Part shown: piece after piece, positions 6,666 to 32,846 of the stretch
How positions within the stretch are numbered: the stretch's first letter is position 1
How the letters are laid out: the number at the start of each line of letters is the position of its first letter
Source of the DNA: a bacterium
GTDB taxonomy: Bacteria; UBA8248; JACPRG01; G963555815
Assembly: GCA_965218795.1 (NCBI GenBank)
Contig: OZ244653.1
Coordinates: forward strand, 3,136,001 to 3,200,000
Length of the DNA stretch: 64,000 bases
Direction of reading: 5' to 3'
Notes under the pieces: model-generated
Told to the model about the DNA's origin: nothing
Database searches by the model: none
What the model saw: only the letters and a program-made list of their open reading frames with translations
Program-made: the position numbers and the translations under genes

Positions 6666-8147
6666 CTAATGCCCGGTCGCCTCTTCCAGGTTGACCTCGA
6701 TGAATTCAGCAATAGAAGGATGAACGCGCTGCACCTCGTGGAACATCTGCTGAGCCACCCGCCGATAGGTGAAATGGCCGTTCGGGGCGCTCCTCAGCTT
6801 GACGACGTGCATGATCTCGCGGAGGTTGAGCGTCCAGAGCAGTCGGCGCCGGTGGGCGTTCAGGACGAAGTAACGCGCCTCGTTGGGGAAATCCTTCGAG
6901 TACCTGTCAAAACAGGATTCCGCCTGTTCAACCCCCGCCATGTAGTCCTCGCGGGCGTCTGCGTCATCAATGAGTTCGGGAGTGACGAACCCGTGCCGGA
7001 TGGTCGGCGGCTGGACGCTCTGCGTACACATCCTGTGCCGTTTGAGGTCCAGGTAGGCGCCCTGGTCGACCAGGCACTCGAAGGTGTAGGTCAGGTGCTC
7101 CATCTGGCGGAGGGGAATGTCGAAGCGATCAAGCCGCCGGAGGGCTTCTTCGATGACGGCGCGTTTTCGATCGTCGGGCAGACCCGCCACGCGCCCGCGA
7201 AGCTCCTCATAGGGAACGTCGGTATGGGGATACAGGATGGCGGCCGCGAGGCTGGATTCCGGATCTTCGGGATATTCAAGGAGACGGGTGTAGCTCTCCT
7301 CATCCGATACGGGTTCCGAGGCGGCCATGTCTTCCGCCAGCAATTGCACCGCCTCCCGGGTCTCCGACATGTAGGCGTTGTAGTCGGCATATTTCACGAG
7401 CGTGGGCACGGCCTGCTGGCAGACCTCTTTCAAGGTATCGCCGATTTGACGGATCTCGCTCAGCTCGTGACTTACCATCTTGCGGATGGCGTGCTCCAGC
7501 ACCCGGGCGTTGGCCGTCATGCCCACGTTGGCCAGCGCGGAAACGGGCAGGAGGAACCTCGCGCGGTCCAGGGCGTAAGCCCGCACGCGCACGCCGTAGC
7601 CCCGGTCGGATTCGCCTTCGCGCCGGGGAAGCCGCCCGGACCTCCGAAGGAAGGCGTCCAGCTTGTTCTGGAGGCCGAGGTAGTTTTCGAACATCCAGCG
7701 GGTCGCCTCCCGGTACTCTCCGGCCAGGGGGGAGGCGTCGATCTCCTCTGGAACGTAATAGTCGTCCACCGAGAAGATCTGGTAGCGGGAGGACTTCTCT
7801 GTATAGGAGGCGAGCCGGTTGGCCTCGATGACTTCGGTGGCGTACCGGCTCACGTTCTCGATGGCGATGGAGAGGACGGCGTGCTCGGCGACCGAGGCGT
7901 GCCCGTAGCCCACCACCCATTTCTCGTGAAACCGGGCGGAGGACTCATCCGTCAGCTCTTCGGCAATCTCATCGAAGGCCTTCGGCGACCGGCTCGTCTT
8001 GGCAAAGGCGACCGCCACGATTTCGGGCGGAAGATCCTTCAACAAATATACCCGACGACTTTTGCCTGTTTGTGGACTGCCGGGGTTTTGGGGGGCAGGG
8101 TTTCCGATGGAGGATTTCGCAACCGACGCCGACTCTGGGCTCATCAC
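6666..8147 (-). CDS. thyX: FAD-dependent thymidylate synthase, tandem two-domain form
   Basis: GHASVAEH, RLASYTEKSSRY, ARFLLP in domain 1; DLKRHR and NLRE..H..KLRS in domain 2; about twice single ThyX length. Confidence 0.88.
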   Translation of the reverse strand: MMSPESASVAKSSIGNPAPQNPGSPQTGKSRRVYLLKDLPPEIVAVAFAKTSRSPKAFDEIAEELTDESSARFHEKWVVGYGHASVAEHAVLSIAIENVSRYATEVIEANRLASYTEKSSRYQIFSVDDYYVPEEIDASPLAGEYREATRWMFENYLGLQNKLDAFLRRSGRLPRREGESDRGYGVRVRAYALDRARFLLPVSALANVGMTANARVLEHAIRKMVSHELSEIRQIGDTLKEVCQQAVPTLVKYADYNAYMSETREAVQLLAEDMAASEPVSDEESYTRLLEYPEDPESSLAAAILYPHTDVPYEELRGRVAGLPDDRKRAVIEEALRRLDRFDIPLRQMEHLTYTFECLVDQGAYLDLKRHRMCTQSVQPPTIRHGFVTPELIDDADAREDYMAGVEQAESCFDRYSKDFPNEARYFVLNAHRRRLLWTLNLREIMHVVKLRSAPNGHFTYRRVAQQMFHEVQRVHPSIAEFIEVNLEEATGH

Positions 8148-8335: not shown

Positions 8336-9820
8336 CTAATGGGCCAAGGCGACGGCGGAGAGACCTTTCAAGAGTCCGGCCACGGAGGTCTGGGCGGCGC
8401 TGAAGAAGGGATGAGGATACAGCCCGATGAACAGGACGCCGATCACCATGATCGCGATGCCGACCGTCAAGGGGAAGGAATTCGACGTCTGAATCCGGCC
8501 CGTCGGTTCTTCCATATACATCAGCATGACGACGCGGAAGTAGTAATAAAGCGATATCGCGCTGTTCAGCATCCCGATGATGGCCAGCCAAACGAACCCG
8601 GCATCAATCGCCGCCGCAAAGAGGTAGAACTTGCCCACGAAACCTCCGGTCGGCGGGATTCCCGTCAAGCTGAGGAAGAAGATCACCAAAGCCAGGGAGG
8701 GCCAGGGATGCTCCCGGGCGAAACCCCGGAAGTCCTCCAGGTTGTCTCCCCGCATGTTCGGCCGGCAGAGGAGGATGATCAGCGCGAAAGCCCCGAGGTT
8801 CGTAAAGAGATAAGCCGCCATGTACAGCATGATGCTGGCGATCCCGGTGCTCGTCGCCACGACGAGCCCGATCAGGATATATCCGGCGTGCGCGATGCTG
8901 GAATAGGCCAACAGCCGCTTGAGGTTGGACTGGACGAGAGCGCCAATGTTGCCCCAGGTCATCGTGACCACCGCCAGGAGCCAGAGCAGGATGGTCCACT
9001 CGTCCTGGGAGCGGCCGAGGCCGACCATAAAAACCCGCACCAGAGCGGCGAAGGCGGCCGCCTTGGTCCCGACGGACATGAAGGCCGTAATGGGGGTGGG
9101 GGCTCCCTGATAGGCGTCCGGCGCCCACATGTGAAACGGCACCAAAGCCACTTTGAAGGCAAATCCGGCCGTCAGCAGGATGATGGACAGGGTCAGCAGG
9201 GGACTGGAGCCCGAGGGCTTTCCCAGGAGGGCCTCGCGGATGCCGTCCAGATAAATCGTTCCGGTGTATCCGTAAATGAGCGCGATCCCGTACAGGACGA
9301 TGGCCGAGCTGAATATCCCAAGCAGGAAATACTTGATGCCCCCTTCCTGCGACGCCAAGTCGCGCTTGAGAAAGCCCACCAGAATGTAAACGGGGATGGA
9401 GAGCAGCTCCAGGCCGATATAAATGGTCAACAGGTCGTTGCCCGAAGCCATGACCATCATGCCGATGGTCGAGAACAGCAGGAGGGAATAGTATTCACCC
9501 AGATTGATCTCTTCGATCTTCAGATAACGGAAGGAGATCAAGACGGTCAGGAAGGTGACGCCCAAAAAGATGAACTTGAAAAACGTGGAGAAATCGTCTA
9601 CCCGGTACATTCCGCCGAACGCCCGAGTGTCCTGTCCCACCATCCGGGCCAAAAAAATTCCAGTGACGACCAGTCCCACCAAAGTGAGGAACCCCACGAA
9701 GCCCTTTCGGGAGGGTGAGAGGAACAGATCCACCAGGATCACCAGGCAGACCAGGGCCGTCATGATGATCTCGGGCAGGATCGGGCCCAACTGAACCGTT
9801 GGCAGGAGAATGGGTTCCAT
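8336..9820 (-). CDS. nuoN: NADH-quinone oxidoreductase subunit N (operon 1)
   Basis: EGGIKYFLLG, FKVALVPFHMWAPDAYQGAPTP, KRLLAYSSIAHAGY. Confidence 0.95.
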   Translation of the reverse strand: MEPILLPTVQLGPILPEIIMTALVCLVILVDLFLSPSRKGFVGFLTLVGLVVTGIFLARMVGQDTRAFGGMYRVDDFSTFFKFIFLGVTFLTVLISFRYLKIEEINLGEYYSLLLFSTIGMMVMASGNDLLTIYIGLELLSIPVYILVGFLKRDLASQEGGIKYFLLGIFSSAIVLYGIALIYGYTGTIYLDGIREALLGKPSGSSPLLTLSIILLTAGFAFKVALVPFHMWAPDAYQGAPTPITAFMSVGTKAAAFAALVRVFMVGLGRSQDEWTILLWLLAVVTMTWGNIGALVQSNLKRLLAYSSIAHAGYILIGLVVATSTGIASIMLYMAAYLFTNLGAFALIILLCRPNMRGDNLEDFRGFAREHPWPSLALVIFFLSLTGIPPTGGFVGKFYLFAAAIDAGFVWLAIIGMLNSAISLYYYFRVVMLMYMEEPTGRIQTSNSFPLTVGIAIMVIGVLFIGLYPHPFFSAAQTSVAGLLKGLSAVALAH

Positions 9821-9823
9821 GGT

Positions 9824-11461
9824 TTACTTTTCCGGCGCGCTCCGGAAGGCCTTTGAAACGATCTCTCGGACTTCCCGGGCCGACCCGGGCGGCGACTTGG
9901 GCACGACAGGACGCGCGAACGCCTTGCCGTCGATGGGCTTGCCCGCTTTCGCCAGTTCCATCTGCTTCACGAGGTTTTTGACCGCGGGCTCCATCAGGTT
10001 GATGAACGGTTTCGGATAGATTCCGATCCAGAACATGAGGAGAATAATCGGCATCATGTAGACGACTTCCCGCACGTTCAGATCCGTCAAATTCTGGTTC
10101 TCGGGCTTATCGAGGTTTCCGAACATCATCCGTTGGAAGAGCCAGAGCATGTATGCCGCCCCCAGGACAATACCCGCCACCGCAAAGCCCGCATAGACCT
10201 TGCTGACCTGGAATGCGCCCACCAGGATCAGGAACTCACCGATAAATCCGTTCAGCCCCGGCAGGCCGATCGAAGAGAACATGGTGATCGCGAAGATGAC
10301 GGTGAAGATTGGGACGACCTTCGAGAGGCCGCCGTAATCGGCGATCAACCTCGTATGACGCCGCTCATAGATGATTCCGACAATCAGGAAGAGCGCCCCC
10401 GTGGAGAGACCGTGGTTGAGGTTTTGAAGGAGAGCGCCCACCAGCCCCTGAGAGTTGAGGGCGAATATGCCCAGCATGACAAAGCCCAAGTGACTCACTG
10501 AGCTGTAGGCCACGAGCTTCTTGACGTCCTGCTGCGCCATGGCGACCAGAGCCCCGTAAATGATGCCGACAATGGCCAACAGCGCCATGAACGGGACCAT
10601 CGTCTCACTCGCCTGCGGCACCAACGGCAAATTGAAACGGACGAAACCGTAGGTTCCCATCTTCAGCAGCACGCCCGCCAGGATCACACTCCCGGCCGTG
10701 GGAGCCTCCACATGCGCGTCGGGCAGCCACGTGTGGAATGGAAACATGGGAACCTTGATGGCGAACCCCACGAAGAGCGCCAGGAAGACCCAGAACTGGT
10801 AGTCCGCAGGAAGCCTGGGCGCCATCCGATAAAGCTCGAGGAGATTGAACGTCAGCTCGCCCGAGCCGTACGCCGGGTTGGCGTTCAGGAAATACAGGGC
10901 CAGGAAGCCCAGCAGAAGGAGGACGCTGCCCACCAGCGTATACAGAAAGAACTTGATGGCCGCGTAAAGCTTTCTGGGCCCGCCCCAGATCCCGATCAGG
11001 AAGTACATCGGGACGAGCATCACCTCCCAGAAGATATAGAACAGGAACAGATCCAGCGAAACGAAGACGCCCAGCATCCCTGTCTCGAGAATGAGGAGGC
11101 TGATGTAGTACTCTTTTTCACGTTCCCCAATGGCTTTGTAGGAACAAAGAATCGAGATCGAGGAGAGAAGGGTCGTCAAGAGAATCAGAAGGATGCTGAT
11201 GCCGTCCAGGCCCATGAAGTAGGTGACGCCGATGGACGGGATCCAAGTGTATTGCTCCACAAACTGCATTCGGACGTTGTTGGCGTCGAAGGCCGGCAAC
11301 AGCCAGAGGGAAAGGGCCAGGGTGATCAGCGATACGATCAGGGTGAAGTTCCTGATGGCCGCCGCCTTCTCCCGGGGGAAGAAGAGCATCACGATGAAGG
11401 CCCCGATGATGGGGACAAAAACCATATAGGTCAAAACCGGGAAACCCAGAACGTTCGTCAT
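9824..11461 (-). CDS. nuoM: NADH-quinone oxidoreductase subunit M (operon 1)
   Basis: FWEVMLVPMY, AIKFFLYT, KVPMFPFHTWLPDAHVEAPT, LLKMGTYG; basic C-terminal extension. Confidence 0.96.
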   Translation of the reverse strand: MTNVLGFPVLTYMVFVPIIGAFIVMLFFPREKAAAIRNFTLIVSLITLALSLWLLPAFDANNVRMQFVEQYTWIPSIGVTYFMGLDGISILLILLTTLLSSISILCSYKAIGEREKEYYISLLILETGMLGVFVSLDLFLFYIFWEVMLVPMYFLIGIWGGPRKLYAAIKFFLYTLVGSVLLLLGFLALYFLNANPAYGSGELTFNLLELYRMAPRLPADYQFWVFLALFVGFAIKVPMFPFHTWLPDAHVEAPTAGSVILAGVLLKMGTYGFVRFNLPLVPQASETMVPFMALLAIVGIIYGALVAMAQQDVKKLVAYSSVSHLGFVMLGIFALNSQGLVGALLQNLNHGLSTGALFLIVGIIYERRHTRLIADYGGLSKVVPIFTVIFAITMFSSIGLPGLNGFIGEFLILVGAFQVSKVYAGFAVAGIVLGAAYMLWLFQRMMFGNLDKPENQNLTDLNVREVVYMMPIILLMFWIGIYPKPFINLMEPAVKNLVKQMELAKAGKPIDGKAFARPVVPKSPPGSAREVREIVSKAFRSAPEK

Positions 11462-11558
11462 TGCAATCGGTCCTTTACATCGCGTCCGGGCGACGGGTCT
11501 TTTCCGACGTCATGCCCGAGAGCTCAGTCATCCGTCCAGTGCGGATTCCGTCCCTCCG

Positions 11559-13595
11559 TTATCCATACAAGAGGTACAAACTCAGAATGATGAATACACC
11601 GATGAGCATGGCGAGGGCATAGTTCTGAACAGCCCCGGTCTGAACCCGCCGGAGGCCCCGCCCCCAATTCGTCAGGATCACACCGATCCCGTTGACGGCC
11701 CCGTCCACCGTCCGCAGGTCAAAGACACCTGACAACCTGCTGGACCAAACGGTCACCCAGGAGGTCCCGTTGACGGCCCCGTCCACGCCCTTGGAGTCCA
11801 CCCAAAACAGGGCCCGCATCAGCCAAAGTATCGGTCGGATGATGCAGGCATCGTAAATCTCGTCCACCCAATACTTGTTCAGCAGCAGGCGATAGGTGCC
11901 CTGGAATCTATCGGTCAGGCGATTGGCCAGATCCAGGTTCTTCGTGTACATGTGCCGGGCGAGCATCCACCCGCTGACCCCGACGACAACGGAGACCGCC
12001 GCCAGAATCCAATGCAGCGCGCCCGATGAACCGCCCCCCGCCGCCGCTGCCAGCTGAATTCCCGCAGGCGCCGCGGCATGGGAAGAAGCCCTGAAAACGG
12101 GCGCCATATAATCCGAAAACCAGTGCAGCCCCGGCATATCCACCCAACCGCCAATCGCCGCCAAAACCGCCAGGATCATCAACGGGATCGTGATGACCGA
12201 TGGTGACTCGTGCAGATGGTGCGCCGCCTCATGGCCCACCCGAGACTCGCCGTAAAAGGTCATGTAGATCAGCCGGAACATGTAAAAAGCCGTCATGAAC
12301 GCCCCGATCAGCCCGATCACGTAGAGCGTGTAATGGCCCGATTCGAACGTCCCGGCCAGAATGGAGTCCTTGCTGAAGAAACCCGCGAACGGGGGAATCC
12401 CCGCGATGGCCAGCGCACCGATGTAGAACGTGATCGCAGTGACGGGCATGTGCTTGCGGAGCCCGCCCATATAACGCATGTCCTGCCGCCGCGCCTCGTC
12501 CGGATCCCCGTGGAGGGCGTGGATGACGCTCCCCGATCCCAGAAAGAGCAGTCCCTTGAAGAAGGCGTGAGTCATCAGGTGAAAGATCGCGAAGGAAAAG
12601 GCTCCCACGCCGCAGCCCAGGAACATATAGCCCAACTGACTCACGGTCGAATAGGCCAGGACCCGTTTGATGTCGTTCTGCACCAGCCCGATAGCCGCCG
12701 CGAATATCGCCGTCAGCCCGCCGATAATCGCCACGATTTCCATTGAGACGGGAGCCAGCAGGTACAGGGCGCTGGATCGGGCCACCATATAAACCCCCGC
12801 CGTCACCATGGTGGCGGCATGGATGAGCGCGCTGACGGGAGTCGGGCCTTCCATGGCGTCGGGCAGCCACACATACAGCGGAATCTGCGCCGATTTTCCG
12901 ACCGCGCCGATGAACAGACAAATCGTGATGAAGGTGGCGGAGGAGGCGATGGCGGAGCCGGGCCCCGCGGCCCGGGCCTGATCGATCACCCCGTCCCCGC
13001 CAAAATAAGCGAGGGTGCCGAAGACCTGGAAGATCATGAACACGCCCAGGAGGAAACCCGCGTCACCGATTCGGTTGACGATGAAGGCCTTCTTCCCCGC
13101 GTCGGACGCGGACTTCTTGTGGTACCAGAAACCAATCAGCAGATAAGAGCACAGCCCCACGCCCTCCCAGCCGACGAACATCAGCAGGTAGTTGTTCCCC
13201 AGGATCAGGATCAGCATGGCGAACATGAAGAGATTCAGGTACGTGAAGAACCGTGCGTAACCCGGATCGCCGTGCATATAGCCGATGGAATAGACGTGGA
13301 TCAGGAAGCCCACACCCGCTACGACAAGCAGCATGACCGAGCTCAGCGGATCGAGACGAAAGCCCACTTCCGTTTTCAGCGTTCCAGCCAGAACCCAGTC
13401 GAAAAGGGTGACTTCGATCGTCCTGCCCTGCAGGATCGTCTGGTTGAGGACGATCAGGGCGAAGAGAAGCGAGAGGGCCGTCGACAGGATGGCGATCCAG
13501 TGCGCCTTCCTGCCGGTCCACCGGCCGAAGAGACCGTTGATCAGGGCTCCCAGACCAGGCAACGCGACAATCCAAGGAATGAGTTGTTCGGCCAT
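11559..13595 (-). CDS. nuoL: NADH-quinone oxidoreductase subunit L (operon 1)
   Basis: GWEGVGLCSYLLIGFW, KAFIVNRIGD, KSAQIPLYVWLPDAMEGPTPVSALIHAATMV. Confidence 0.96.
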   Translation of the reverse strand: MAEQLIPWIVALPGLGALINGLFGRWTGRKAHWIAILSTALSLLFALIVLNQTILQGRTIEVTLFDWVLAGTLKTEVGFRLDPLSSVMLLVVAGVGFLIHVYSIGYMHGDPGYARFFTYLNLFMFAMLILILGNNYLLMFVGWEGVGLCSYLLIGFWYHKKSASDAGKKAFIVNRIGDAGFLLGVFMIFQVFGTLAYFGGDGVIDQARAAGPGSAIASSATFITICLFIGAVGKSAQIPLYVWLPDAMEGPTPVSALIHAATMVTAGVYMVARSSALYLLAPVSMEIVAIIGGLTAIFAAAIGLVQNDIKRVLAYSTVSQLGYMFLGCGVGAFSFAIFHLMTHAFFKGLLFLGSGSVIHALHGDPDEARRQDMRYMGGLRKHMPVTAITFYIGALAIAGIPPFAGFFSKDSILAGTFESGHYTLYVIGLIGAFMTAFYMFRLIYMTFYGESRVGHEAAHHLHESPSVITIPLMILAVLAAIGGWVDMPGLHWFSDYMAPVFRASSHAAAPAGIQLAAAAGGGSSGALHWILAAVSVVVGVSGWMLARHMYTKNLDLANRLTDRFQGTYRLLLNKYWVDEIYDACIIRPILWLMRALFWVDSKGVDGAVNGTSWVTVWSSRLSGVFDLRTVDGAVNGIGVILTNWGRGLRRVQTGAVQNYALAMLIGVFIILSLYLLYG

Positions 13596-13605
13596 GCTCA
13601 GCGAC

Positions 13606-13908
13606 TCACCACTTGAGGATGTTGATCTCGTCCACGTTCAGCGTGGCTTTTCTACGGTTCAGTGAAATGATGAAGGCCAGACCGACCGCCGCCTCGACGG
13701 CGGCAACCGTGATCACGAAGATGACGAACATCTGCCCCATCATGTTTCCGTTCATTTTGGCGAACGCGATGAACGTCAGGTTGACGGCGTTCAGCATCAA
13801 CTCAATCGACATCAGAATCATGATGACGTTCCGCCGCGTCACGACGCCGATCCCGCCGATGACAAAGACCATCCCGGCGAGGGCCAGGTAGTATTCGCCC
13901 GGTACCAT
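13606..13908 (-). CDS. nuoK: NADH-quinone oxidoreductase subunit K (operon 1)
   Basis: [30 protein letters not shown]; start moved to ATG at 13908. Confidence 0.95.
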
Positions 13909-13978
13909 CAGCGTTTCTCTCCCCGAAGGTCGCACGGGCCGGGCAGGCAAACCGGTTGAAGTCTCGCTTGTGTGGTCA

Positions 13979-14497
13979 TCACTCGATATTTCGCTTCGCC
14001 ATGACGATTGCGCCGATCATGGCCGCCAACAGCAACAGCGAAGTCACCTCAAAGGGAAAAAGGAACTGGGTGTAGAGCGTGGCGCCGAACGCCTCGGTGT
14101 TTCCCCCATATGCGTTCAAGACCGATTTCGCGGCTTCGGCCGTCTTCGCCGAAGGGGCCGCGATGCCCTTCGCAAAGATGGCCAGAAGCTCTACGGCGAG
14201 CAGAACCCCGATCACGGCCGCCGCAACCTTCTGGCGGTGCCACTGCCGCTCGGCCATCGACTCCCGGACGTTGATGAGCATGATGACAAAGACATAGAGC
14301 ATCATGATGGCGCCGGCGTAAATCAGCACCTGAATCGCCGCCAGGAATTCCGCTTCGAGCATGACGTACAGGGCGGCCGCGCAAAAGAGCGTCAGCAGCA
14401 GATAGAGCGCCGCGTGAACGACGTTTCGTCGCGTGATCACCAGCACCGAAGCGATCAGCATGACGCCGCCAAAGAGTATGAAGAAGGCCCATTCCAT
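13979..14497 (-). CDS. nuoJ: NADH-quinone oxidoreductase subunit J (operon 1)
   Basis: [40 protein letters not shown]. Confidence 0.95.
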
Positions 14498-14557
14498 CAA
14501 TTCGACCGTCCTTTGCGCTTTCGATCCACCCCGGTCTGCGCGCCGCGCTCGGGCCGA

Positions 14558-15511
14558 TCAGACCAGGTACATCAAAAGTCCAGTCGCGAAGATATTGGCC
14601 AGAGCAAGGGGAAACATGATCTTCCATCCCAATCGCATGAGCTGGTCGTACCGGAACCGCGGCAACGTCGCACGGAGCCACATCATGAAGAACATGCCGA
14701 GGAACACCTTGATGATGAACCAGTGAACGCCCGGAACGATGGGGCCCAGGTAGCCGCCGAAGAAGACGACGGCGGCGACGGAGCAGACGATCAGCATGTT
14801 GGCGTACTCGGCCAGGAAGAAGAAGGCGAACTTCATCCCGCTGTATTCGGTATGGAACCCGGCCACCAGTTCGGTTTCAGCTTCGGGCAGGTCGAAAGGC
14901 ACCCGGTTGGTCTCCGCAAGTCCGGCGATGAAGAACAACACGAAGGCCAGAGGCTGGTAAAAGATATACCAAGCCTCTTGCTGACCCTCGACGATTCCCT
15001 TCATATTCAGAGTGCCCGCAACCATCAATGGCCCGATGAGGGCAAATCCCAGGAAAATCTCATAGGAGATCATCTGCGCAGCCGCTCGGAAGGCCCCGAG
15101 CATTGAATACTTGCTTCCCGAGGCCCAGCCCGCCATCACGACGCCGAATATCCCCAATGAGGAGACACCGACGATAAACAACAGACCAATGTTCAGGTTG
15201 GCGATAATGAACCCTTCGGAAAACGGGATCACGGAATAGACGACGAAGGCGGGGATCAGCGCAAGGAGAGGCGCGATCAGGAAGACCGCCTTGTCGGACT
15301 CCCGCGGAATGATGTCTTCCTTCAAAAAGAGCTTGAGTCCGTCGGCGATTGGCTGCAACAGCCCATGCGGTCCGACGCGCATCGGCCCCAGACGCACCTG
15401 CATATGGCCGATCACCTTCCTCTCCATATACGTCATATAGGCCACCACCAGGGACACGGTCCCCCACACGACGACGATCTTAATCACGGCAAAAACGGTT
15501 TCGACCCACAT
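14558..15511 (-). CDS. nuoH: NADH-quinone oxidoreductase subunit H (operon 1)
   Basis: [47 protein letters not shown]. Confidence 0.96.
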
Positions 15512-15550
15512 CCCTGGTCTGCTGACTCCCTTGCCGGACTGAGGCCTTGG

Positions 15551-16681
15551 TTAGCGGTCTACCTCGCCCAGGACAATGTCGATGCTCCCGATGGCCGCGA
15601 TGGCGTCGGCCACGAGCTGGTCCTGCAACATAAAGGGCAGGGCCTGAAGGTTGATGAAGGAAGGGGGCCGGATCCGCAGCCGGTAGGGCCGGTCCGTCCC
15701 GTCGCTCACAAGGTAATAGCCCAACTCCCCCTTCGGACTCTCGATCCGGTGGTAGACATCCCCCAGCTTCGGCTTGAGCGTCCTCGGCACCTTGGCCATC
15801 GTTCGTCCGGTCGGCAAATCGGAGACTGCCTGATCGATGATGTAGCAGCTCTGACGCATCTCTTCCAATCGGACGAGATAACGATCATAGGTGTCGCCGT
15901 TTTTCCCCACCGGAACGGTAAAGTCGAAATCCTCATAGGCGGCATACGGCTCGGCTTTGCGAATGTCGAACGGGACGCCGGCCCCCCGGATGATGGGCCC
16001 GCTGACGCCCAGATTGGTCGCGTCTTCCGCATTGAGCACCGCGACCCCGCGCGTGCGCTTCTGCCAGATCCGGTTCTCCGTCAGGAGGTCCTCGTAGTCG
16101 TACATCGCCCGGGGGAAATAGCGGACAAAATCTTCGCAGGCGAGGAAAAACTCGGTCGGCGGATCTTCAAAAATTCCACCGACACGGAAGCTGTGAACGG
16201 TGAGTCGCGCCCCGTAGGCGGTCTCAAACAGGTCCAGGATTTTCTCCCGGTCCCGGAAGCAATAGAGAAACACCGTCATGGCCCCGATATCCAGGGCGTG
16301 GGTGCCCAGCCAGAGCAGGTGGCTCGCAATACGGGTCAACTCCGCCGTGATGACGCGAACGTATTTGGCCCGGATGGGAACGTCCAGCTCCAGGAGCTTT
16401 TCGACGGTCTCAACGTAGCCCTCGTTGCCGGTGGGAGAGGCGACGTAGTCCGTTCGATCCGTATAAGGGACAAATTGGCCGTAGGCGAGATTTTCCCCGA
16501 TCTTCTCCACTCCGCGATGGAGGTAACCGATGTCGCAGTCGGTATGCTTGATGGTCTCACCGTCCAACTGGAGGATGACCCGGAGAACACCGTGGGTGCT
16601 GGGGTGCTGGGGCCCCATGTTCACCACCAGTTCTTCGGTCTGCGGAACGATGGGGTCGGTTTTCTCAGGCGCCTGAACCAC
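15551..16681 (-). CDS. nuoD: NADH-quinone oxidoreductase subunit D (operon 1, short form about 376 aa)
   Basis: NMGPQHPSTHGVLR, GYLHRGVEK, DRTDY, DIVLGEVDR; GTG start at 16681 behind GAGAGGA RBS; no NiFe CxxC motifs. Confidence 0.95.
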   Translation of the reverse strand: MVQAPEKTDPIVPQTEELVVNMGPQHPSTHGVLRVILQLDGETIKHTDCDIGYLHRGVEKIGENLAYGQFVPYTDRTDYVASPTGNEGYVETVEKLLELDVPIRAKYVRVITAELTRIASHLLWLGTHALDIGAMTVFLYCFRDREKILDLFETAYGARLTVHSFRVGGIFEDPPTEFFLACEDFVRYFPRAMYDYEDLLTENRIWQKRTRGVAVLNAEDATNLGVSGPIIRGAGVPFDIRKAEPYAAYEDFDFTVPVGKNGDTYDRYLVRLEEMRQSCYIIDQAVSDLPTGRTMAKVPRTLKPKLGDVYHRIESPKGELGYYLVSDGTDRPYRLRIRPPSFINLQALPFMLQDQLVADAIAAIGSIDIVLGEVDR

Positions 16682-16694
16682 TTGGGGTGTCCTC

Positions 16695-17384
16695 TCAGCC
16701 CTTGGACTGGACGGGCCGACTGTCCGGGGGGATCTGCCGTTGCACCCAAGACAATCCGAAACCGTCGCCGGGGAGGGGGTATTCCTTCCGTAGGGGAAAT
16801 CCTTCCCAATCCGCGGGAAGCAGAATCCGGCGCAGGTCGGGATGACCTTCGAACTCAATCCCGAACATGTCGAAAGCTTCCCGCTCGAGCCAGTTCGCTG
16901 TCCGCCAAACGCCCTGAACCGACGAAACGGCATCACCCTCGGCCAGCCGCACCTTCAGCCGGAGGCGCTCGGAGCGCTCGATCGAAAACAACTGATAGAC
17001 GACCTCCAGAGGCTTTTCCCGCTCCGGATAGTGGACCCCGCACAGGTCCGACAGGAAATCGAAGCCATGTTCCTCTTTGAGGAAGCGGCACAATACCAAA
17101 ATCCGGCCAGCGGGCACGACCATGGAGACCTCATCGGGACCTTCCGTAAACGAGGTGACCTCTTCGACTTCGTCTCCGATCAGGCTCCGGACGGCCTGCA
17201 CCCCTCGCAGGGACTCGATGGGATCCTCCGGCTCTTCGGACGGTTCCTCAGGGGGCGCAGCTTCGCCTTCGCCGCCTCCCGCGGAAGCGGCTTCTTCCGT
17301 GTTTTCTTGAGTTTCCGAGGACGGTTCCGACTCGGCAGCGGAGGGAGCCCCTTCTTCCTCCTCCGTCTGATTCTCTTCGGCCAT
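16695..17384 (-). CDS. nuoC: NADH-quinone oxidoreductase subunit C (operon 1) with acidic N-terminal extension
   Basis: ANWLEREAFDMFGI, GHPDLRRILLP, GFPLRKEYP. Confidence 0.95.
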   Translation of the reverse strand: MAEENQTEEEEGAPSAAESEPSSETQENTEEAASAGGGEGEAAPPEEPSEEPEDPIESLRGVQAVRSLIGDEVEEVTSFTEGPDEVSMVVPAGRILVLCRFLKEEHGFDFLSDLCGVHYPEREKPLEVVYQLFSIERSERLRLKVRLAEGDAVSSVQGVWRTANWLEREAFDMFGIEFEGHPDLRRILLPADWEGFPLRKEYPLPGDGFGLSWVQRQIPPDSRPVQSKG

Positions 17385-17399
17385 AAGTTTCCTGAATTG

Positions 17400-17876
17400 T
17401 TACGCGCGCAGGAACTTCTCCTGCTGAATCTTTTCCTGGAGTTTCAATACCCCCCACATCAGGGCTTCAGGACGCGGCGGGCACCCGGAGATGTAAATGT
17501 CTACCGGAACCACCTGGTCCACCCCCTGAAGAGTGGAGTAGGAGTTGAACGGTCCGCCGGCGGTCGAACAACTCCCCATCGAAATCACCCATCTCGGCTC
17601 GGGCATCTGGTCGTACACCTTTCGGAGCACCGGAGCCATCTTGTACGTGACCGTCCCGGCGACGATCATGACGTCCGACTGTCGCGGCGTCGCGCGGAAG
17701 ATCACACCGAACCGGTCGAAGTCGAAGCGCGAGGCTCCCGACGCCATCATCTCGATGGCACAGCAGGCCAATCCGAACGTCATGGGCCACAAGGCCGACT
17801 TCCGCGCCCAGTTCACCAGATAATCCAGCGTCGTGGTGAGAATGTTCTCCTGAAATCGGTGTTCGACTATACCCAT
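17400..17876 (-). CDS. nuoB: NADH-quinone oxidoreductase subunit B (operon 1)
   Basis: [30 protein letters not shown] (N2 cluster); start at ATG 17876 overlapping nuoA. Confidence 0.96.
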
Positions 17877-18259
17877 TCCAGGGCTCCCTTCTTCCAGGCG
17901 TAAACGTATCCTACGAGCAGGATCAAGAGGAAGAGCATCATCTCGATGAACCCGAACAGACCGATACGGTCGTAGACCACGGCCCACGGAAAGAGAAATA
18001 CGCCTTCCACATCGAACAAGAGAAACAGGATGGCAACGATATAGAATCGGATGGAGAAATGCTCGCGCGCCCGGATTAAGGGAGGAATTCCGCATTCATA
18101 AGGTGAAAGTTTTTCCGGATCAGGTCGATGGGGGCGCACAATCGCGGCGATGATCAGCGTTCCTCCTCCGAAGGCCGCCGCCACCAGCAGAAAGATAAAG
18201 ACGGGTATAAATGGATGTATCGACGTATAGTCGCTGAAAAAGCGGCTCAGTAATTCCAC
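17867..18259 (-). CDS. nuoA: NADH-quinone oxidoreductase subunit A (operon 1)
   Basis: [24 protein letters not shown]. Confidence 0.95.
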
Positions 18260-18337: not shown

Positions 18338-18366
18338 ATTATAATCCTTCCTCCACCCTCGTAAAA
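18338..18366 (-). promoter_or_regulatory. putative sigma70 promoter for nuo operon 1
   Basis: Minus-strand TATAAT at 18343-18338 with TTTACG/TTTTAC 16-17 nt upstream, in the AT-rich gap between nuoN2 and nuoA1. Confidence 0.5.
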
Positions 18367-18403: not shown

Positions 18404-19900
18404 TCAAAACCCCCCGGCGGCGGCCCATCTGGCCAGCGCCAAGGCCTGTGAAGGGAATATCCCGAGCTGAAGCGTCCCCCAGCCCGCGATCAGGAGACCC
18501 GCGGCGGTCAGGACACCGACCCGGAGGACCGCGGCGCCCGGGCCGGCTTCCATTTTCGCATCACCGGCCACAGCGCCCTCCGGCTCCCGCATGTACAGGT
18601 GGACGACGACACCCAGGTAGTAAGTCACGGCCGCCACGCTGTTCAGCACGGCGATGATCACCAGCCAGGTGTAACCGGCCTGCACCGCCGCACTGAAGAT
18701 GTAGACCTTGCCCATGAATCCGGCCGTCGGCGGAAGTCCTGCAAGGCTGAACATGAACAGGGCCAGGACGAATCCCAAAACCGGATGGCGGAACCCCAAC
18801 CCGTCGTATTCGGACAGCTCGAGCGATTCACGGCCGTCCCGATTCATCGCACCCAAAGCAATGATGACCCCGAAGGCTCCGACCGTGCTCAGCGTGTACT
18901 GGAACAGGTAGAACAGGAGACCACCGGAGCCGGTCTCATTCAGAGCAACCAGCGCCACGAGGAGATAGCCGGCATGGGCGATGCTCGAGTAGGCCAGCAT
19001 CCGCTTGATGTTGCGCTGGGTGATGGCAGCCACATTCCCCAAGGTCATGGTCAGGACGGCCATCACCCATAGAATTCCGCCCCAATCCACATGAAGGGCG
19101 GCGAGCGGGCCCGCGAAGACGCGGAACAGAGCAGCGAAGCCCGCGGCCTTGACAGCGGCCGCCATAAACCCCGTGACCGGAGTGGGCGCGCCTTCGTACA
19201 CGTCGGGGGCCCACATATGGAACGGCACCGCAGCCACTTTGAACCCGAACCCCACCACCAGCAACCCGATGCCCACCAGCAGGAGCCAGTCGGCGCCGCC
19301 CGATTGGCCGGCCAGCCTCTCGCTCAGGATGGCGTGGTCCAGGCTTCCGGTGCTGCCGTAGATCAGGGCGATTCCATAAAGCAAAAAACCGCTGGCAAAG
19401 GCCCCCATCAGGAAGTACTTCATGGACGCCTCGCTGGAGGCGACCCTCGTCTTGAGCAATCCCGCCAGGACATAGGAAGCAATGGACATCACCTCGAGAC
19501 CGAGGAAGATTGTGACCAGGTTCGTCCCGCCCGCCATCATGACCATCCCCGCAGCCGCAAAAAGCAATAGGGCGTAATACTCGCCCCCGGCGATTCCTTC
19601 GCGCGCCGTATAGTTGTAGGACAGAAGCCATGTGAGGGCAGTCCCCAAGACGAAGATCAACGTAAAGGCCTGGGTCACCCGGTCGGAGGAGAACATCCCG
19701 TTGAAGACCCGCTGGGGCGTATCCCAAATCGCGATGGCCGACGCCGCCGTTCCCGCCAAAATCACCAGGCCCAGTCCCGCGAGCCAGCCGCGGGCATCCT
19801 TCATGAAGACATCCACCATCAATACCGCAATGGCGCCCAGGCAGAGCCACACCAGGGGCAGAACGGCGGTCAGGTTAACGCTGGGAATTTCGGGCAACAC
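18404..19900 (-). CDS. nuoN: NADH-quinone oxidoreductase subunit N (operon 2)
   Basis: EASMKYFLMG, FKVAAVPFHMWAPDVYEGAPTP; GTG start at 19900 with GGGAG RBS. Confidence 0.95.
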   Translation of the reverse strand: MLPEIPSVNLTAVLPLVWLCLGAIAVLMVDVFMKDARGWLAGLGLVILAGTAASAIAIWDTPQRVFNGMFSSDRVTQAFTLIFVLGTALTWLLSYNYTAREGIAGGEYYALLLFAAAGMVMMAGGTNLVTIFLGLEVMSIASYVLAGLLKTRVASSEASMKYFLMGAFASGFLLYGIALIYGSTGSLDHAILSERLAGQSGGADWLLLVGIGLLVVGFGFKVAAVPFHMWAPDVYEGAPTPVTGFMAAAVKAAGFAALFRVFAGPLAALHVDWGGILWVMAVLTMTLGNVAAITQRNIKRMLAYSSIAHAGYLLVALVALNETGSGGLLFYLFQYTLSTVGAFGVIIALGAMNRDGRESLELSEYDGLGFRHPVLGFVLALFMFSLAGLPPTAGFMGKVYIFSAAVQAGYTWLVIIAVLNSVAAVTYYLGVVVHLYMREPEGAVAGDAKMEAGPGAAVLRVGVLTAAGLLIAGWGTLQLGIFPSQALALARWAAAGGF

Positions 19901-21455
19901 GAGTCGGCTCCCGCATCGAATCAACAGACCATGAACCATTTCGGAGCGATGCCGTGCGTTCAGCCTTGGAGGCATTTTCCTTCAGAACTTGCACGACGGA
20001 CGCTTCCATCTTCTGCAAGAATGGTTTGGGGGCCAGTCCGATCCAAAAGACAAACAGGACGATGGGGACCAGAACCGCCCACTCCCTCGGATTGAGGTCG
20101 GGGAGTGACCGATTTTCATCCTGCGTCAACTCTCCGAAGATCACTCGCTGAACCATCCAGAGCATATAGACGGCTCCCAGGATGATCCCCAGCGCGGCCC
20201 ACGCGGTCGCCCAGCGGTGCACACGGAATGAACCCATCAAAAGGGTGAATTCACCGATGAACCCGTTCAGCCCCGGAAGCCCGATCGAAGAAAACGTAAT
20301 AATGAGAAAAATGACCGAGTAGGCCGGAATGATCTTGGCCAGCCCTCCGTACTGCGCCATGAGACGGGTATGCCGTCGCTCGTAGAGAATCCCGACCAGA
20401 AGGAACAAGGCACCGGTCGACAGCCCGTGATTCACCATCTGAAGGATTCCGCCTTCAATCCCCTGGACGTTTACCGCAAACAAACCCAACATGACGAACC
20501 CCAAGTGACTGACCGAGCTGTATGCCACCAATCGTTTGATATCTTCCTGGACAAAGGCCATCAAAGCTCCGTACAGGATCCCGATGACCGACAGAGCGAC
20601 GATGAACGGAGTAAAATCTCTTGCGGCCAGCGGAAAGAACGGAATCGCGAAACGAATGAAGCCATACGTCCCCATCTTCAGGAGGACGCCCGCCAGGATT
20701 ACACTCCCCGAGGTGGGGGCCTCCACATGGGCGTCCGGAAGCCAGGTATGGAATGGAAACATGGGGACCTTGATGGCGAAGGCCAGGAAAAACGCTCCAA
20801 ACAGCCACCACTGGACGTCGCCCGCGAGTCCGAGCCGATTCAGCGTGAAATAATCGAAGGTCAAGGCGCCGGTAGCCTTGTAATTCAGATACACCATCAC
20901 CAGAAGAGCGACCAGCATCAGGACGCTTCCGGCCATGGTGTAGAGAAAAAACTTCACTGCCGCGTAGATCCTTCGCTCCCCCCCCCAAACGCCGATGAGC
21001 AGCGCCATGGGAATCAGCATGACCTCCCAGAACACGTAAAAGAGGAACATGTCGAGGGCAACGAAGACCCCCAGCATGGCCGACTCGAGGACGAGCATGG
21101 CGATATAGAACCCCTTAATGCGGCGCTGGATCTCCCGCCAGGAGCTCAGGATGGCAAGCGGTGTCAGGAACACCGTCAGCAACACCATCCACAAACTGAT
21201 TCCATCCACCCCCAATCGATAGCCAATCCCGAAGGTGGGGATCCACTCGACGTTTTCCGAGAACTGCATCGCTGCCACATCTGGGCGGAATGAGATACAG
21301 AGGATCACGCCCAAAACAAACGTCGCCGTCGAGAAAATCAGGGCGATTCCCTTTAGCGTCGACGGCTCCCGGCGGCTCCATCCGCCCACCAGAAACGCGC
21401 CCGCCAGGGGAAGAAAAACAATCCAACTCAAAATGGGAAATTCCATCGAATCCAA
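19875..21455 (-). CDS. nuoM: NADH-quinone oxidoreductase subunit M (operon 2)
   Basis: FWEVMLIPM, AVKFFLYT, KVPMFPFHTWLPDAHVEAPT. Confidence 0.96.
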   Translation of the reverse strand: MDSMEFPILSWIVFLPLAGAFLVGGWSRREPSTLKGIALIFSTATFVLGVILCISFRPDVAAMQFSENVEWIPTFGIGYRLGVDGISLWMVLLTVFLTPLAILSSWREIQRRIKGFYIAMLVLESAMLGVFVALDMFLFYVFWEVMLIPMALLIGVWGGERRIYAAVKFFLYTMAGSVLMLVALLVMVYLNYKATGALTFDYFTLNRLGLAGDVQWWLFGAFFLAFAIKVPMFPFHTWLPDAHVEAPTSGSVILAGVLLKMGTYGFIRFAIPFFPLAARDFTPFIVALSVIGILYGALMAFVQEDIKRLVAYSSVSHLGFVMLGLFAVNVQGIEGGILQMVNHGLSTGALFLLVGILYERRHTRLMAQYGGLAKIIPAYSVIFLIITFSSIGLPGLNGFIGEFTLLMGSFRVHRWATAWAALGIILGAVYMLWMVQRVIFGELTQDENRSLPDLNPREWAVLVPIVLFVFWIGLAPKPFLQKMEASVVQVLKENASKAERTASLRNGSWSVDSMREPTRVARNSQR

Positions 21456-21493
21456 CCCGTCCCTATCCGGGATCGGCGCTCCGCTTCATTCCC

Positions 21494-23416
21494 TCAGCGC
21501 CACGTGTAAAACAGAGTAATCGCCAACACCCCAATCAACATCGAAAGCAGATAGGTCTTCGCGTAACCCGTTTGGAGAGTTCGAAAATATCCCGAAAAGT
21601 TTCGGAAGGTCCCGCCAATCCCATTCACCAGACCATCGACGATAATGACATCCACCCTCGCCCAGAGCGCATGGGCGACCGTTCCTAAAGGTACAACGAA
21701 GAGCGCGTCGTACATCTCATCCACATAGAATTTGTTGACGAACAGCCGGTAGAAACCCGGCAGCCTGTCCGCCGCACGCTTTGCCAGCTCGGGCCGGACC
21801 AGATACATCCGATTGGCCAGATAAATCCCCAATAGGGCCACGGCCAGGGAAATCAGCATCAAACCCAACTCCAGCCCCACGCTGCCGTGAGACGGCCCGT
21901 GGGCGCCGGGCAGTTTCGCCGCGCCCGCGAACACTGGTCCCAGGAAATCCCCGAACACATCGGCGCCGTGGATGATGGGAACCCCGATCCACCCACCGAT
22001 GACGGCCAGCACGCTCAGAACAATCAGTGGAAGGGTCATCACGGCGGGCGATTCGTGCGGACTGGGCGCCGCCGCCCCGCCAAACCGGAAGGACCCGTGG
22101 AATGTCAGAAACGTGCACCGAAACATGTAGAACGCCGTCAGGCCCGCCACGAGCACGCCGAAGATCCAGAAAACCGGATTCCCCTGCGACCATGCGTTCC
22201 AGAGGATGGCGTCCTTACTGAAAAACCCGGCCAGTGGAAAAACGCCGGCCAGTGCCAAGCCACCCGCTACAAAGGTCCAATACGTGGTCGGCATCTTTTT
22301 CCGCAGGCCGCCCATCTTCCGGATGTCCTGCTCCCCTCCCATCGCGTGGATGACGCTTCCCGAGCCCAGGAAAAGGAGGGCTTTGAAGAACGCGTGCGTC
22401 ATGAGGTGAAAAATGGCCGCGCCGAACGCGCCCACACCGCACGCCAGGAACATGTACCCCAGCTGGCTGATGGTGGAATACGCGAGAACTCGCTTGATAT
22501 CGGTCTGAACCAGGGCGATCAGAGCCGCCAGGAGAGCCGTGGCGGTCCCGATGACGGCAATCGTCATCAGCGCCGCCGGAGACAGAAGGAACAGAACGTG
22601 GGTCCGGGCGACCATGTAGACGCCAGCCGTCACCATGGTGGCCGCGTGAATCAAGGCGCTGACCGGCGTCGGTCCCTCCATGGCGTCGGGGAGCCAGGTA
22701 TAAAGAGGGATCTGCGCGGATTTTCCCGTGGCCCCCAGAAAGAGCAGAAGCGCAATGGCGGTCACGACCGCGCTTCCCGCGGCCAGCTTTTCGGGCGCGG
22801 CGGCGAAAACCTCTTTGAAATCCAGCGTTCCAAGGGTGGAGAAGAGCAGGAAGATCGCGATAGCGAATCCGAAATCCCCAATTCGATTGACGATGAAGGC
22901 CTTCTTCCCCGCGTCCGAGGCGGATTTCTTCTCGAACCAGAACCCGATAAGCAGGTAGGAGCACAGGCCGACACCCTCCCAGCCGACGAACATCAGGAAG
23001 AAGTTGTCAGCCAGCACCAGCAGCGACATGGCGAACAGGAACAGGTTCAGGTATGCGAAGTAGCGTGGCTGACCCGGATCGTCATGCATGTACCCGACGG
23101 AATATACGTGAATGACAAAGCCTACCCCTGTGACCACCAGAATCATGACGGCGGAGAGGGGGTCCAGAAGCAGAGAGGCTTTGATGACGAAATCCCCTGA
23201 GGCGATCCAGGTGTAGAGCGTGTGGTGAATCGAGCGTTCCGACGGCTCCAGGCTCAGAAGGCTGAAGAAGATCCATAAGGCCGCCGCGAAGCTCAATCCC
23301 GACGCAATGCAGGCGATGGCGCCCGCTCGCCGGGCTCCAGTCCAACGGCCGAACAGTCCGTTGACGACGGCGCCCAGGGCGGGGAACAGCGGAATCAGCC
23401 AGAGGTTTTCTTGCAT
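21494..23416 (-). CDS. nuoL: NADH-quinone oxidoreductase subunit L (operon 2)
   Basis: GWEGVGLCSYLLIGFW, KSAQIPLYTWLPDAMEGPTP; start at ATG 23416. Confidence 0.96.
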   Translation of the reverse strand: MQENLWLIPLFPALGAVVNGLFGRWTGARRAGAIACIASGLSFAAALWIFFSLLSLEPSERSIHHTLYTWIASGDFVIKASLLLDPLSAVMILVVTGVGFVIHVYSVGYMHDDPGQPRYFAYLNLFLFAMSLLVLADNFFLMFVGWEGVGLCSYLLIGFWFEKKSASDAGKKAFIVNRIGDFGFAIAIFLLFSTLGTLDFKEVFAAAPEKLAAGSAVVTAIALLLFLGATGKSAQIPLYTWLPDAMEGPTPVSALIHAATMVTAGVYMVARTHVLFLLSPAALMTIAVIGTATALLAALIALVQTDIKRVLAYSTISQLGYMFLACGVGAFGAAIFHLMTHAFFKALLFLGSGSVIHAMGGEQDIRKMGGLRKKMPTTYWTFVAGGLALAGVFPLAGFFSKDAILWNAWSQGNPVFWIFGVLVAGLTAFYMFRCTFLTFHGSFRFGGAAAPSPHESPAVMTLPLIVLSVLAVIGGWIGVPIIHGADVFGDFLGPVFAGAAKLPGAHGPSHGSVGLELGLMLISLAVALLGIYLANRMYLVRPELAKRAADRLPGFYRLFVNKFYVDEMYDALFVVPLGTVAHALWARVDVIIVDGLVNGIGGTFRNFSGYFRTLQTGYAKTYLLSMLIGVLAITLFYTWR

Positions 23417-23420
23417 GCCG

Positions 23421-23723: not shown

Positions 23724-23827
23724 CTCGTCTTTCCTCCGCTTTTCTCCGATTCCATGCCGAATCGATTCAGGTTGCCCTGGAACGACTTCCGAGGCGTCCA
23801 CCGGTAAATCGTTAACGCGGGGAGCGC

Positions 23828-24343
23828 CTAACCGGGACTCCGCCGGGCCAGGACCACTGCCCCGATGATCGCGACAAACAGTAAGATGGAAGTGATCTCA
23901 AAGGGCAGGAGATAGTCGGTGAACAGGAGCCAACCGATGGACTTCACTCCGCCAATCTCGGCCAACCGCTCCGGAGAGAAAGCTCCGACCGCTTCCGGAT
24001 TCTTCACGCCACGCATCCGAGCAAGAACGAAAATCAATAAACCGAGGGCAAAAACCAAGCCCGCGATTTTCTGGCCTTTCAGCCTGAGCGGCGTCCGCTT
24101 CTCCCGGCCGACGTTGAGCAACATGATGACAAACAAAAAGAGCACCATGATGGCCCCGGCGTAGATCAGCACTTGAATAGCGGCGAGGAATTCAGCGTGG
24201 AGGAGCAGGAAGATACAGGCCAGGCTGAACAGGGTCCCGATGAGGTACAGGGCGCTGTACACCGCGTTTTTCGAACAGAGCACCATCAGCGCCGTCACGA
24301 CTGAGATCACCGCAAAGACGTAAAACAGGATCATCGGCATCAT
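23828..24343 (-). CDS. nuoJ: NADH-quinone oxidoreductase subunit J (operon 2)
   Basis: [29 protein letters not shown]. Confidence 0.95.
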
Positions 24344-24861
24344 GGGGCCGGGTTCTCTGATTTGGGGACACGCCTCCCACCGATCGGGACGGTGTCATGC
24401 TTGGGCTCGGGCTCTTTTCGGAGAGATTCCGGCATCGGCACCAAGAGCCTATCCTTCGTGTACAGCATCGACTCGCGGGTATAGTCGCAGAACTCGTACG
24501 CTTCCCCCATGACGATGGCGTCCACCGGGCAGGCCTCGTCGCACATCCCGCAATAAATACATCGCAGCTCGTTGATCTCATATACCGAGGCGTATCGTTC
24601 CCCGGGCGATACCCGGTTTTCCGCCGTGTTCTCCTCCGACTCGATATAGATGCAATCCACCGGGCAGGCGGCCTGGCAAAGCTTGCAGCCGATACAGCGT
24701 TCCATGCCCGCATAGGGGCCGTCTTCATACCGCATCAGCTTGTGGAGCCCGCGGTATCCCGGCACCATGGGCGCCTTTTCTTCCGGATATTGAACCGTGA
24801 TGGGTTTTTTAAAAAGATGCCGGAACGTCAGGGCCAGCCCTTTTCCCAGTTCGGTAATCAT
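24340..24861 (-). CDS. nuoI: NADH-quinone oxidoreductase subunit I (operon 2)
   Basis: TVQYPEEK, two ferredoxin motifs [12 protein letters not shown] and [12 protein letters not shown]. Confidence 0.96.
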
Positions 24862-24889
24862 CCTGCCGCCCTCCTGAGCGGCGTCGCCC

Positions 24890-28443: not shown

Positions 28444-28446
28444 TGG

Positions 28447-32231: not shown

Positions 32232-32250
32232 CTTCGATCTGAAACCCCTT

Positions 32251-32842: not shown

Positions 32843-32846
32843 CAGG

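Follow-up and report, generated by a model that had tools for sequence, protein, structure and literature searches.

The window examined here, 64,000 nt of contig OZ244653.1 from a bacterium of the GTDB lineage UBA8248, carries on its minus strand (8336-18259) ten intact open reading frames (ORFs) in the order nuoA-B-C-D-H-J-K-L-M-N, a complex I-like gene set with neither nuoEFG nor nuoI. To judge from its sequence the cluster is functional, and it is best filed as a further gene order in the known family of NuoEFG-less complex I-like enzymes, with the gene for an iron-sulphur (Fe-S) subunit lying off the cluster. We infer that the assembled enzyme contains NuoI and that its gene is located elsewhere; a stand-alone nuoI at another place on the chromosome is the most likely source, with a probability of about 0.5. 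In what follows, genes and proteins of the ten-gene cluster carry the suffix 1 and those of an adjoining 14-gene nuo operon the suffix 2.

All seven membrane-arm genes (nuoA, H, J, K, L, M and N) are found within the one cluster. The ten genes would thus provide the whole membrane arm and three of the four subunits of the quinone module (NuoB, C and D), and the product would be a proton-pumping, NuoEFG-less complex I-like quinone oxidoreductase. The fourth quinone-module subunit, NuoI with its two [4Fe-4S] clusters, would be supplied by a gene outside the cluster. Electrons would then pass from NuoI (N6a, N6b) to NuoB (N2) and on to quinone at the NuoB/D/H junction, and this redox path would be coupled to the antiporter-like subunits L, M and N. 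Enzymes without NuoEFG are thought to take ferredoxin-type donors, and by analogy the electron donor or acceptor of the present enzyme would be of the ferredoxin type. The reverse run, from quinol to ferredoxin, is proposed for Nitrospina in a passage of Luecker et al. (2013).

Gene content of the cluster

Each of the ten proteins matches exactly one complex I family in Pfam and the NCBIfam names are identical (Table 1), while no Fer4 family was found in any of the ten (Pfam, E <= 0.001). Read from the sequence, 39 nt separate the nuoD stop (15551) from the nuoH ATG (15511) and 57 nt separate the nuoH stop (14558) from the TTG start of nuoJ (14500); there is therefore space for neither nuoEFG nor nuoI. 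The gene order and the ten intact genes reported in the initial annotation of this DNA are in this way borne out at every point by Pfam, NCBIfam and the spacers as read. At the level of the gene cluster, membership of the NuoEFG-less 11-subunit class would entail a NuoI encoded in the cluster, and none is encoded there. The start of nuoD1 is the one that called for a choice: the GTG at 16681, with GAGG 9 nt ahead of it, is the most likely, a longer ORF to 16936 overlaps nuoC1, and the closest database relative, 98% identical, is also 376 aa long.

A six-frame scan of the 64 kb for the motif CxxCxxCxxxC gave five matches. NuoI2 and the alpha subunit of a formate dehydrogenase account for two each, and the fifth lies in a frame of 43 codons. 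NuoI2, encoded in the adjoining operon and the only NuoI-type protein of the window, may serve as a donor in trans.

Relatives of the cluster and selection on its genes

Species-representative genomes were scanned with NuoD1, which gave 80 loci, and gene order at these loci was determined by tblastn and blastp with the 24 Nuo proteins of the window as queries. The closest locus (L001, NuoD 78% identical) lies on a 1.4 Mb contig (CAUVWX020000001.1) of another assembly and has exactly the A-B-C-D-H-J-K-L-M-N order, with about 16 nt between nuoH and nuoJ and all ten genes intact. The initial annotation had proposed a survey for this order and had considered an assembly deletion between nuoH and nuoJ; the survey recovers the complete order once more, in L001 among the 80 loci, and with its presence in a separate assembly such a deletion can be dismissed. 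A third cluster of this kind, L009 from an Acidobacteriota genome, reads D-H-J-K-L-M-N, with about 49 nt between nuoH and nuoJ, on a contig that begins inside nuoD.

The surroundings of the cluster differ between the window and L001. In the window, a complete nuoA-N operon with its own nuoI2 (18404-33203) lies on the same strand, 144 nt upstream of nuoA1. The downstream flank of L001 is syntenic with that of the window (ThyX, 70% identical, then ATP sulfurylase), and its upstream flank is formed by a UbiE-like methyltransferase 52% identical to the product of window gene 38266-38853. In the window this methyltransferase gene is parted from nuoA1 by formate dehydrogenase genes and the 14-gene operon, which is not present at the L001 locus. 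Because the two anchors adjoin the cluster in L001, the 19.7-kb block 18404-38078 is an insertion or a deletion between the two genomes and, since the block is not found at the syntenic position, the placement of two nuo clusters side by side is not a conserved trait.

Each of the ten genes evolves under purifying selection, as dN/dS values of 0.03 (NuoB) to 0.23 (NuoC and NuoN) were obtained for the window against L001, with dS values (1.2-2.5) that are near saturation. Columns with at least 95% invariance in the relatives were compared with the window proteins, which differ there at 1 of 57 (NuoB), 1 of 16 (NuoC), 1 of 105 (NuoD), 1 of 65 (NuoH), 1 of 13 (NuoA), 1 of 10 (NuoJ), 0 of 14 (NuoK), 2 of 147 (NuoL), 1 of 88 (NuoM) and 1 of 58 (NuoN) positions. 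The exact NuoB1 sequence is present on 13 public contigs and the exact NuoH1 sequence on 5, the longest of 5.17 Mb (5,174,045 nt), and exact matches to nuo proteins of the L001 lineage are found on contigs of 2,152,400, 1,419,664, 881,271 and 272,636 nt.

Fe-S and quinone-site residues

On the evidence of their residues, NuoB and NuoD of the ten-gene cluster are typical quinone-reducing complex I subunits. The N2 cysteines of NuoB1, which the initial annotation had described as kept, are indeed in place (C38, C39, C103 and C132, invariant in 15/15 aligned NuoB), and its best matches among solved structures are the mammalian complex I subunit NDUFS7 (PSST). In NuoD1, H33, Y82 and D134 occupy columns that are invariant in 16/16 NuoD; we take them to be the counterparts of the quinone-site residues H38, Y87 and D139 of Thermus Nqo4. 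The C-terminus of NuoD1 (DIVLGEVDR) has no NiFe cysteine motif. One position of NuoB1 does depart from the family: residue 130 (window 17487-17489) in the PGCPP motif, which directly precedes the glycine and the fourth N2 cysteine, is changed from Pro to Ser, is Thr in L001 and is Pro in all 44 of the 44 other NuoB.

NuoD1 is a short form, its best one-stretch NCBIfam match being NF008974, a 366-residue NuoD model. A 25-residue stretch of NuoD2 (alignment columns 312-336), which also occurs in mitochondrial 49-kDa subunits, is gone from NuoD1 and from 14 other short-form NuoD (L001-L014). As a correlate of NuoI loss this deletion was rejected, as it is common to 15/15 short-form NuoD, 12 of which come from I-containing clusters.

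Two further features of the quinone module were considered and set aside. NuoC1 starts with an acidic, Glu/Pro/Ser-rich extension of low complexity (about 75-88 residues, approximately 17120-17384) ahead of its conserved domain, and similar extensions are present in L001 and in L003-L005; it was rejected as an Fe-S substitute, being of low complexity, devoid of an Fe-S motif and found in I-containing relatives as well. NuoH of L001 (L001:11147-12229) has 360 aa compared with 317 aa in the window, with an insertion in the loop ahead of the last two helices. This 43-residue insertion was rejected as a vestige of NuoI, since it is cysteine-free and missing from the window NuoH.

Evolution of the NuoI interface

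A NuoI interface that had been freed or re-used should bring extra change in NuoB, C, D and H. Changes shared by the window and L001 and derived with respect to the other sequences were counted wherever at least 70% of the latter have a conserved residue, with seven I-containing sister pairs as controls. There is 1 such change in NuoB (controls 0-2), 2 in NuoC (1-4), 8 in NuoD (2-12) and 3 in NuoH (0-22). The identity of each subunit between the window and L001 was also compared with that expected from the identity of L, M and N in 170 control pairs, and is 0.87 vs. 0.85 for NuoB (z 0.7), 0.61 vs. 0.60 for NuoC (z 0.1), 0.76 vs. 0.76 for NuoD (z 0.1) and 0.73 vs. 0.77 for NuoH (z -1.6). In the deviation, derived-change and identity comparisons, no relaxed or excess change was found in NuoB, C or D of the I-less lineage; the protein evidence therefore does not point to an enzyme without NuoI. 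The different partner docked on NuoB and NuoD that the initial annotation had envisaged finds no support here, these subunits and NuoC evolving as they do in I-containing clusters. The small deficit in NuoH and the change at NuoB Pro130 are the only hints of a re-shaped site.

Phylogeny of NuoD and of the concatenated subunits

The NuoD tree was built from 48 of 82 rows, 34 near-duplicate Acidobacteriota-type rows being left out. NuoD1 and L001 form a pair with support of 100, and the pair falls within a 96-supported clade together with Acidobacteriota ABCDHIJKLMN clusters, an Aquificota group of the same type being adjacent. A quick tree of the concatenated D-H-J-K-L-M-N subunits of 15 clusters agrees with this placement; across the concatenated subunits the window and L001 are 71% identical. 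Since the cluster nests among ABCDHIJKLMN clusters, nuoI left it secondarily.

In the concatenated tree L009 is placed with I-containing Acidobacteriota and not with the window. One common loss of nuoI that includes L009 was rejected, as the approximately unbiased (AU) test excludes a clade made up of the three I-less clusters (p 1.4e-44), a value to be read with the facts that the group was named after the tree had been seen, that the tree is a quick one and that L009 has a long branch and an odd composition. The departure of nuoI from the cluster probably happened twice.

NuoD2 belongs to a separate clade of 14-gene operons, and its nearest named relatives are labelled Nitrospinota by the NCBI submitters. 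The same label is borne in the databases by proteins 63-64% identical to NuoD1 and by others 80-86% identical to NuoI2 and NuoF2.

Frequency of nuo clusters without nuoI

The junction of nuoH and nuoJ is visible in 69 of the 80 loci, with nuoI present in 40 and lacking in 29. The latter comprise L001, L009 and 27 Acidobacteriota-type clusters with the order A-C-D-E-F-G-H-J-K-L-M, which are also without nuoB (for example L031:9065-17261, L040 and L044). The distance from nuoH to nuoJ in the 29 I-less loci is 16-193 nt (median 69), and that from nuoA to nuoC in the 25 measurable B-less loci is -25 to 194 nt (median 59). Because NuoB carries N2 and half of the quinone site, the organisms with B-less clusters must encode it elsewhere and, as the indispensable nuoB is likewise off-cluster in 27 of the 29 I-less loci, supply in trans is the rule there. 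The initial annotation took the arrangement to be unusual; the 29 of 69 clusters that lack nuoI between nuoH and nuoJ weaken this view.

Published work contains related cases. Hausmann et al. describe nuoACDHJKLMN operons in peatland Acidobacteria, and Table S2b of Hausmann et al. (2018, ISME J) lists stand-alone nuoB and nuoI under 'other' scaffolds: in the metagenome-assembled genome (MAG) SbA1, which has three clusters, three nuoB and two nuoI lie away from these, and in SbA5 a single cluster includes both genes and another pair is distal. A section of the preprint of that study attributes missing nuoI to MAG incompleteness. The second complex I of Nitrospina gracilis is scattered, according to an excerpt from Luecker et al. 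(2013), as nuoACHIJKLMN, nuoEGD and a lone nuoB2 and nuoF2. The terms 'split' and 'NUO14minus' operons are already in use (Degli Esposti, 2015), and a 2025 survey reports, in an excerpt, a complete set of subunits in most Acidobacteriota. Neither the string 'nuoABCDHJKLMN' nor a description of that gene order was found in the literature searched.

Three of the Acidobacteriota clusters have a gene between nuoB and nuoC (L003:7578-8912, L004:7851-8894 and L005:7922-8965). In L004 it belongs to PF02636 (E 2e-46), a family of SAM-dependent methyltransferases, and the ORF of L005 is alike by eye. NDUFAF7/MidA, an assembly factor of mitochondrial complex I, presumably belongs to PF02636 as well.

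Source of NuoI

A stand-alone nuoI elsewhere on the chromosome, which we favour, has its difficulties. No nuoI besides nuoI2 was found in the 64-kb window, and none in 21 kb of L001 or in 11 kb of L009. A NuoI profile of the sister clade, run against 1.84 billion representatives, gave 14,196 matches at E <= 0.001, of which the best 150 are listed, and 75 of these best 150 were placed in a tree with 27 reference NuoI. Eight candidates branch where a cognate NuoI would be expected; they come from Aminicenantes and Acidobacteriota and none is on a contig known to carry nuo genes of the window or of L001, a weak objection as the eight are a tiny part of the candidates.

The initial annotation had named NuoI2, a distal nuoI and some other ferredoxin-type partner as the possible sources of electrons for the complex. 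This was the right set, in which borrowing from the adjacent operon has since been weakened by L001 and direct docking of a partner has gained no support. With NuoI2 shared, one NuoI would serve both the NADH-oxidising and the ten-gene complex, which we regard as possible but clearly less probable than a separate nuoI. The sharing would draw on the sole NuoI-type gene in the 64 kb, the 144-nt spacer that parts the two same-strand clusters revealed no terminator-like hairpin, and Acidobacteria with several B/I-less clusters and few stand-alone genes (SbA1, three clusters and two off-cluster nuoI) make it conceivable. L001, however, has the same cluster with no 14-gene operon beside it, the block 18404-38078 lying between the anchors, so that the adjacent operon is not a general source of NuoI. 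The NuoI of sister clusters are only 27-39% identical to NuoI2 (tblastn), NuoB1 and NuoB2 are 62% and NuoD1 and NuoD2 49% identical, so that a cross-fit is not given, and a promoter-like site precedes nuoA1. A weaker argument comes from the nine clusters of sequences closest to NuoI2 (63-99% identity), no listed member of which is on the known L001-lineage nuo contigs, 15 of 26 members being listed for the 85% cluster and all members for the others; relatives of NuoF2, searched at the level of representatives, are likewise absent from these contigs. This hints weakly that the long contigs of L001 are without a nuoI2-type gene.

An enzyme that truly works without NuoI, its NuoB N2 cluster exchanging electrons directly with a 2[4Fe-4S] ferredoxin or another redox partner at the NuoI site, appears improbable, although the I-less order has been kept under purifying selection over a divergence to 71% concatenated identity, the surroundings of the cluster in the window and in L001 yielded no nuoI besides nuoI2, NuoH is slightly faster than expected and Pro130 of NuoB is replaced in both I-less lineages. 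It is equally doubtful that the Ser or Thr at this position forms part of a docking site re-shaped for a direct partner, with NuoI dispensed with. The window and L001 have no candidate gene for such a partner in common beside the cluster; the formate dehydrogenase block, with the subunit whose N-terminus was considered as a partner, is not beside the cluster in L001. NuoB, C and D show no excess change despite their large interface with NuoI, the related energy-converting complexes compared keep a NuoI-type gene unless nuoB is off-cluster too, and in Acidobacteria off-cluster genes account for the same pattern. The 'unusual modular quinone reductase' of the initial annotation is accordingly reduced to a mere possibility, I-less clusters being frequent and the B, C and D subunits unremarkable. 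A remnant that is decaying or has no redox role, or an artefact of assembly or binning, is a very unlikely reading of the cluster: nothing beyond the missing gene suggests it, and the ten intact genes with dN/dS of 0.03-0.23, the retained catalytic and near-invariant residues, and the recurrence of the order in independent assemblies, with exact NuoB1 and NuoH1 on 13 and 5 contigs, all contradict it.

Feature coordinates and neighbouring genes

Table 1. Features of the ten-gene cluster and of its upstream neighbourhood (window positions; bit scores are given with model cutoffs where available).
Feature	Position	Strand	Description
nuoA1	17867..18259	-	130 aa, GTG start; PF00507 E 2e-40; NCBIfam NuoA models
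nuoB1	17400..17876	-	158 aa, ATG 17876; 10-nt overlap with nuoA1 end; PF01058; TIGR01957 244.6 bits (cutoff 142.7)
nuoC1	16695..17384	-	229 aa; PF00329 covers residues 89-206 only
nuoD1	15551..16681	-	376 aa; PF00346; TIGR01962 491 bits (cutoff 459)
nuoD1-nuoH1 spacer	15512..15550	-	39 nt; site of nuoEFG in 14-gene operons
nuoH1	14558..15511	-	317 aa; PF00146 E 2e-128, profile positions 1-297 of 298
nuoH1-nuoJ1 spacer	14501..14557	-	57 nt; site of nuoI in related clusters; no ORF, no Cys motif
nuoJ1	13979..14500	-	173 aa; PF00499
nuoK1	13606..13908	-	100 aa, ATG 13908; PF00420; NF004320 111.8 bits (cutoff 57)
nuoL1	11559..13595	-	678 aa; PF00361 and PF00662; TIGR01974 760 bits
nuoM1	9824..11461	-	545 aa; PF00361; TIGR01972 643 bits
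nuoN1	8336..9820	-	494 aa; PF00361; TIGR01770 469 bits
Sigma-70-like promoter match	18338..18365	-	TTTACG-16-TATAAT, 10/12, in the 144-nt nuoN2-nuoA1 spacer
nuoI2	24340..24861	-	173 aa, two CxxCxxCxxxCP; Fer4 families; TIGR01971 142.7 bits (cutoff 113)

The ten-gene cluster may be expressed independently or by read-through from the 14-gene operon, both being possible from the features of the spacer between nuoN2 and nuoA1. Downstream of nuoN2 this spacer revealed no terminator-like hairpin. The sigma-70-like match that it contains is one of 2 in 11 kb, with 3.0 expected from shuffled sequences, and is thus not significant alone; its position is suggestive at most.

Divergent from the 14-gene operon (33548-38078, plus strand) are genes for a NuoE-NuoF fusion of 553 aa and for the alpha subunit of an FdsA-type formate dehydrogenase, which is 987 aa long and has a NuoG-like Fe-S N-terminus. 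On the other side of the ten-gene cluster, the ThyX protein (6666-8147, minus strand) has 493 aa with two Thy1 stretches and is about twice the usual size; the 70% identical form of L001 has 472 aa. Further away, a CbbQ/NorQ-like AAA ATPase is encoded beside a VWA (CobT_C) protein (45932-48563, minus strand), and a run of genes for COX4, two COX3 paralogues and a UbiA-family prenyltransferase occupies 60820-63953 (minus strand). Two ORFs at 51383-53251 (plus strand), of the IF-2B and the epimerase/dehydratase family, match the C-terminal parts of their Pfam models only (101-277 of 280 and 137-331 of 332 respectively) and may be truncated genes or have mis-set starts.

Discussion

Among known systems the cluster is nearest to the NUO11 enzymes (nuoABCDHIJKLMN; Moparthi and Hagerhall, 2011; Degli Esposti, 2015), with which it has the gene set and order in common except for nuoI. 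NuoD1 groups with the Acidobacteriota and Aquificota clusters of this type, NuoD is short, the N2 and quinone-site residues are kept and nuoE, nuoF and nuoG are missing; the difference is that nuoI is found neither between nuoH and nuoJ nor anywhere else inside the cluster. With the split Acidobacteriota clusters (Hausmann et al., 2018) it shares the lack of nuoI in the cluster and a spacer between nuoH and nuoJ that is too short for a gene (27 loci). Those clusters, however, are without nuoB and have nuoEFG in 27/27 cases, whereas the cluster of the window keeps nuoB and is without nuoEFG, and their missing genes are on other scaffolds of the published MAGs, whereas for the window lineage none besides nuoI2 was found in the 64 kb scanned.

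The likeness to NUO-2 of Nitrospina gracilis is that of an additional complex I, with dispersed genes and a proposed quinol-ferredoxin link, in an organism that also has a canonical one; NUO-2 has nuoI in the cluster and nuoB and nuoD outside it, and in this it differs from the arrangement in the window. The Mbx-like and Ehr complexes are relatives of complex I without canonical NuoI, which is replaced in the former and missing in the latter. The Ehr complex is reportedly without any NuoI-type subunit. Unlike these, the cluster of the window has no substitute gene at the position of nuoI and keeps the N2 and quinone-site residues.

If nuoI simply lies elsewhere, the cluster adds one more case of dispersed nuo genes and a caution against inferring the composition of an enzyme from the content of its operon. 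It also raises the question of whether Fe-S subunits encoded off the cluster, as NuoI would be in this case and as NuoB and NuoI are in Acidobacteriota, are dedicated to one isoenzyme or are shared among isoforms, for which the window, with an I-less and a complete cluster adjoining, and L001, with the I-less cluster alone at its locus, form a convenient pair. Only if no NuoI serves the enzyme would the view of electron uptake by complex I relatives change; the family would then have its first quinone-reducing member that carries only one Fe-S cluster.

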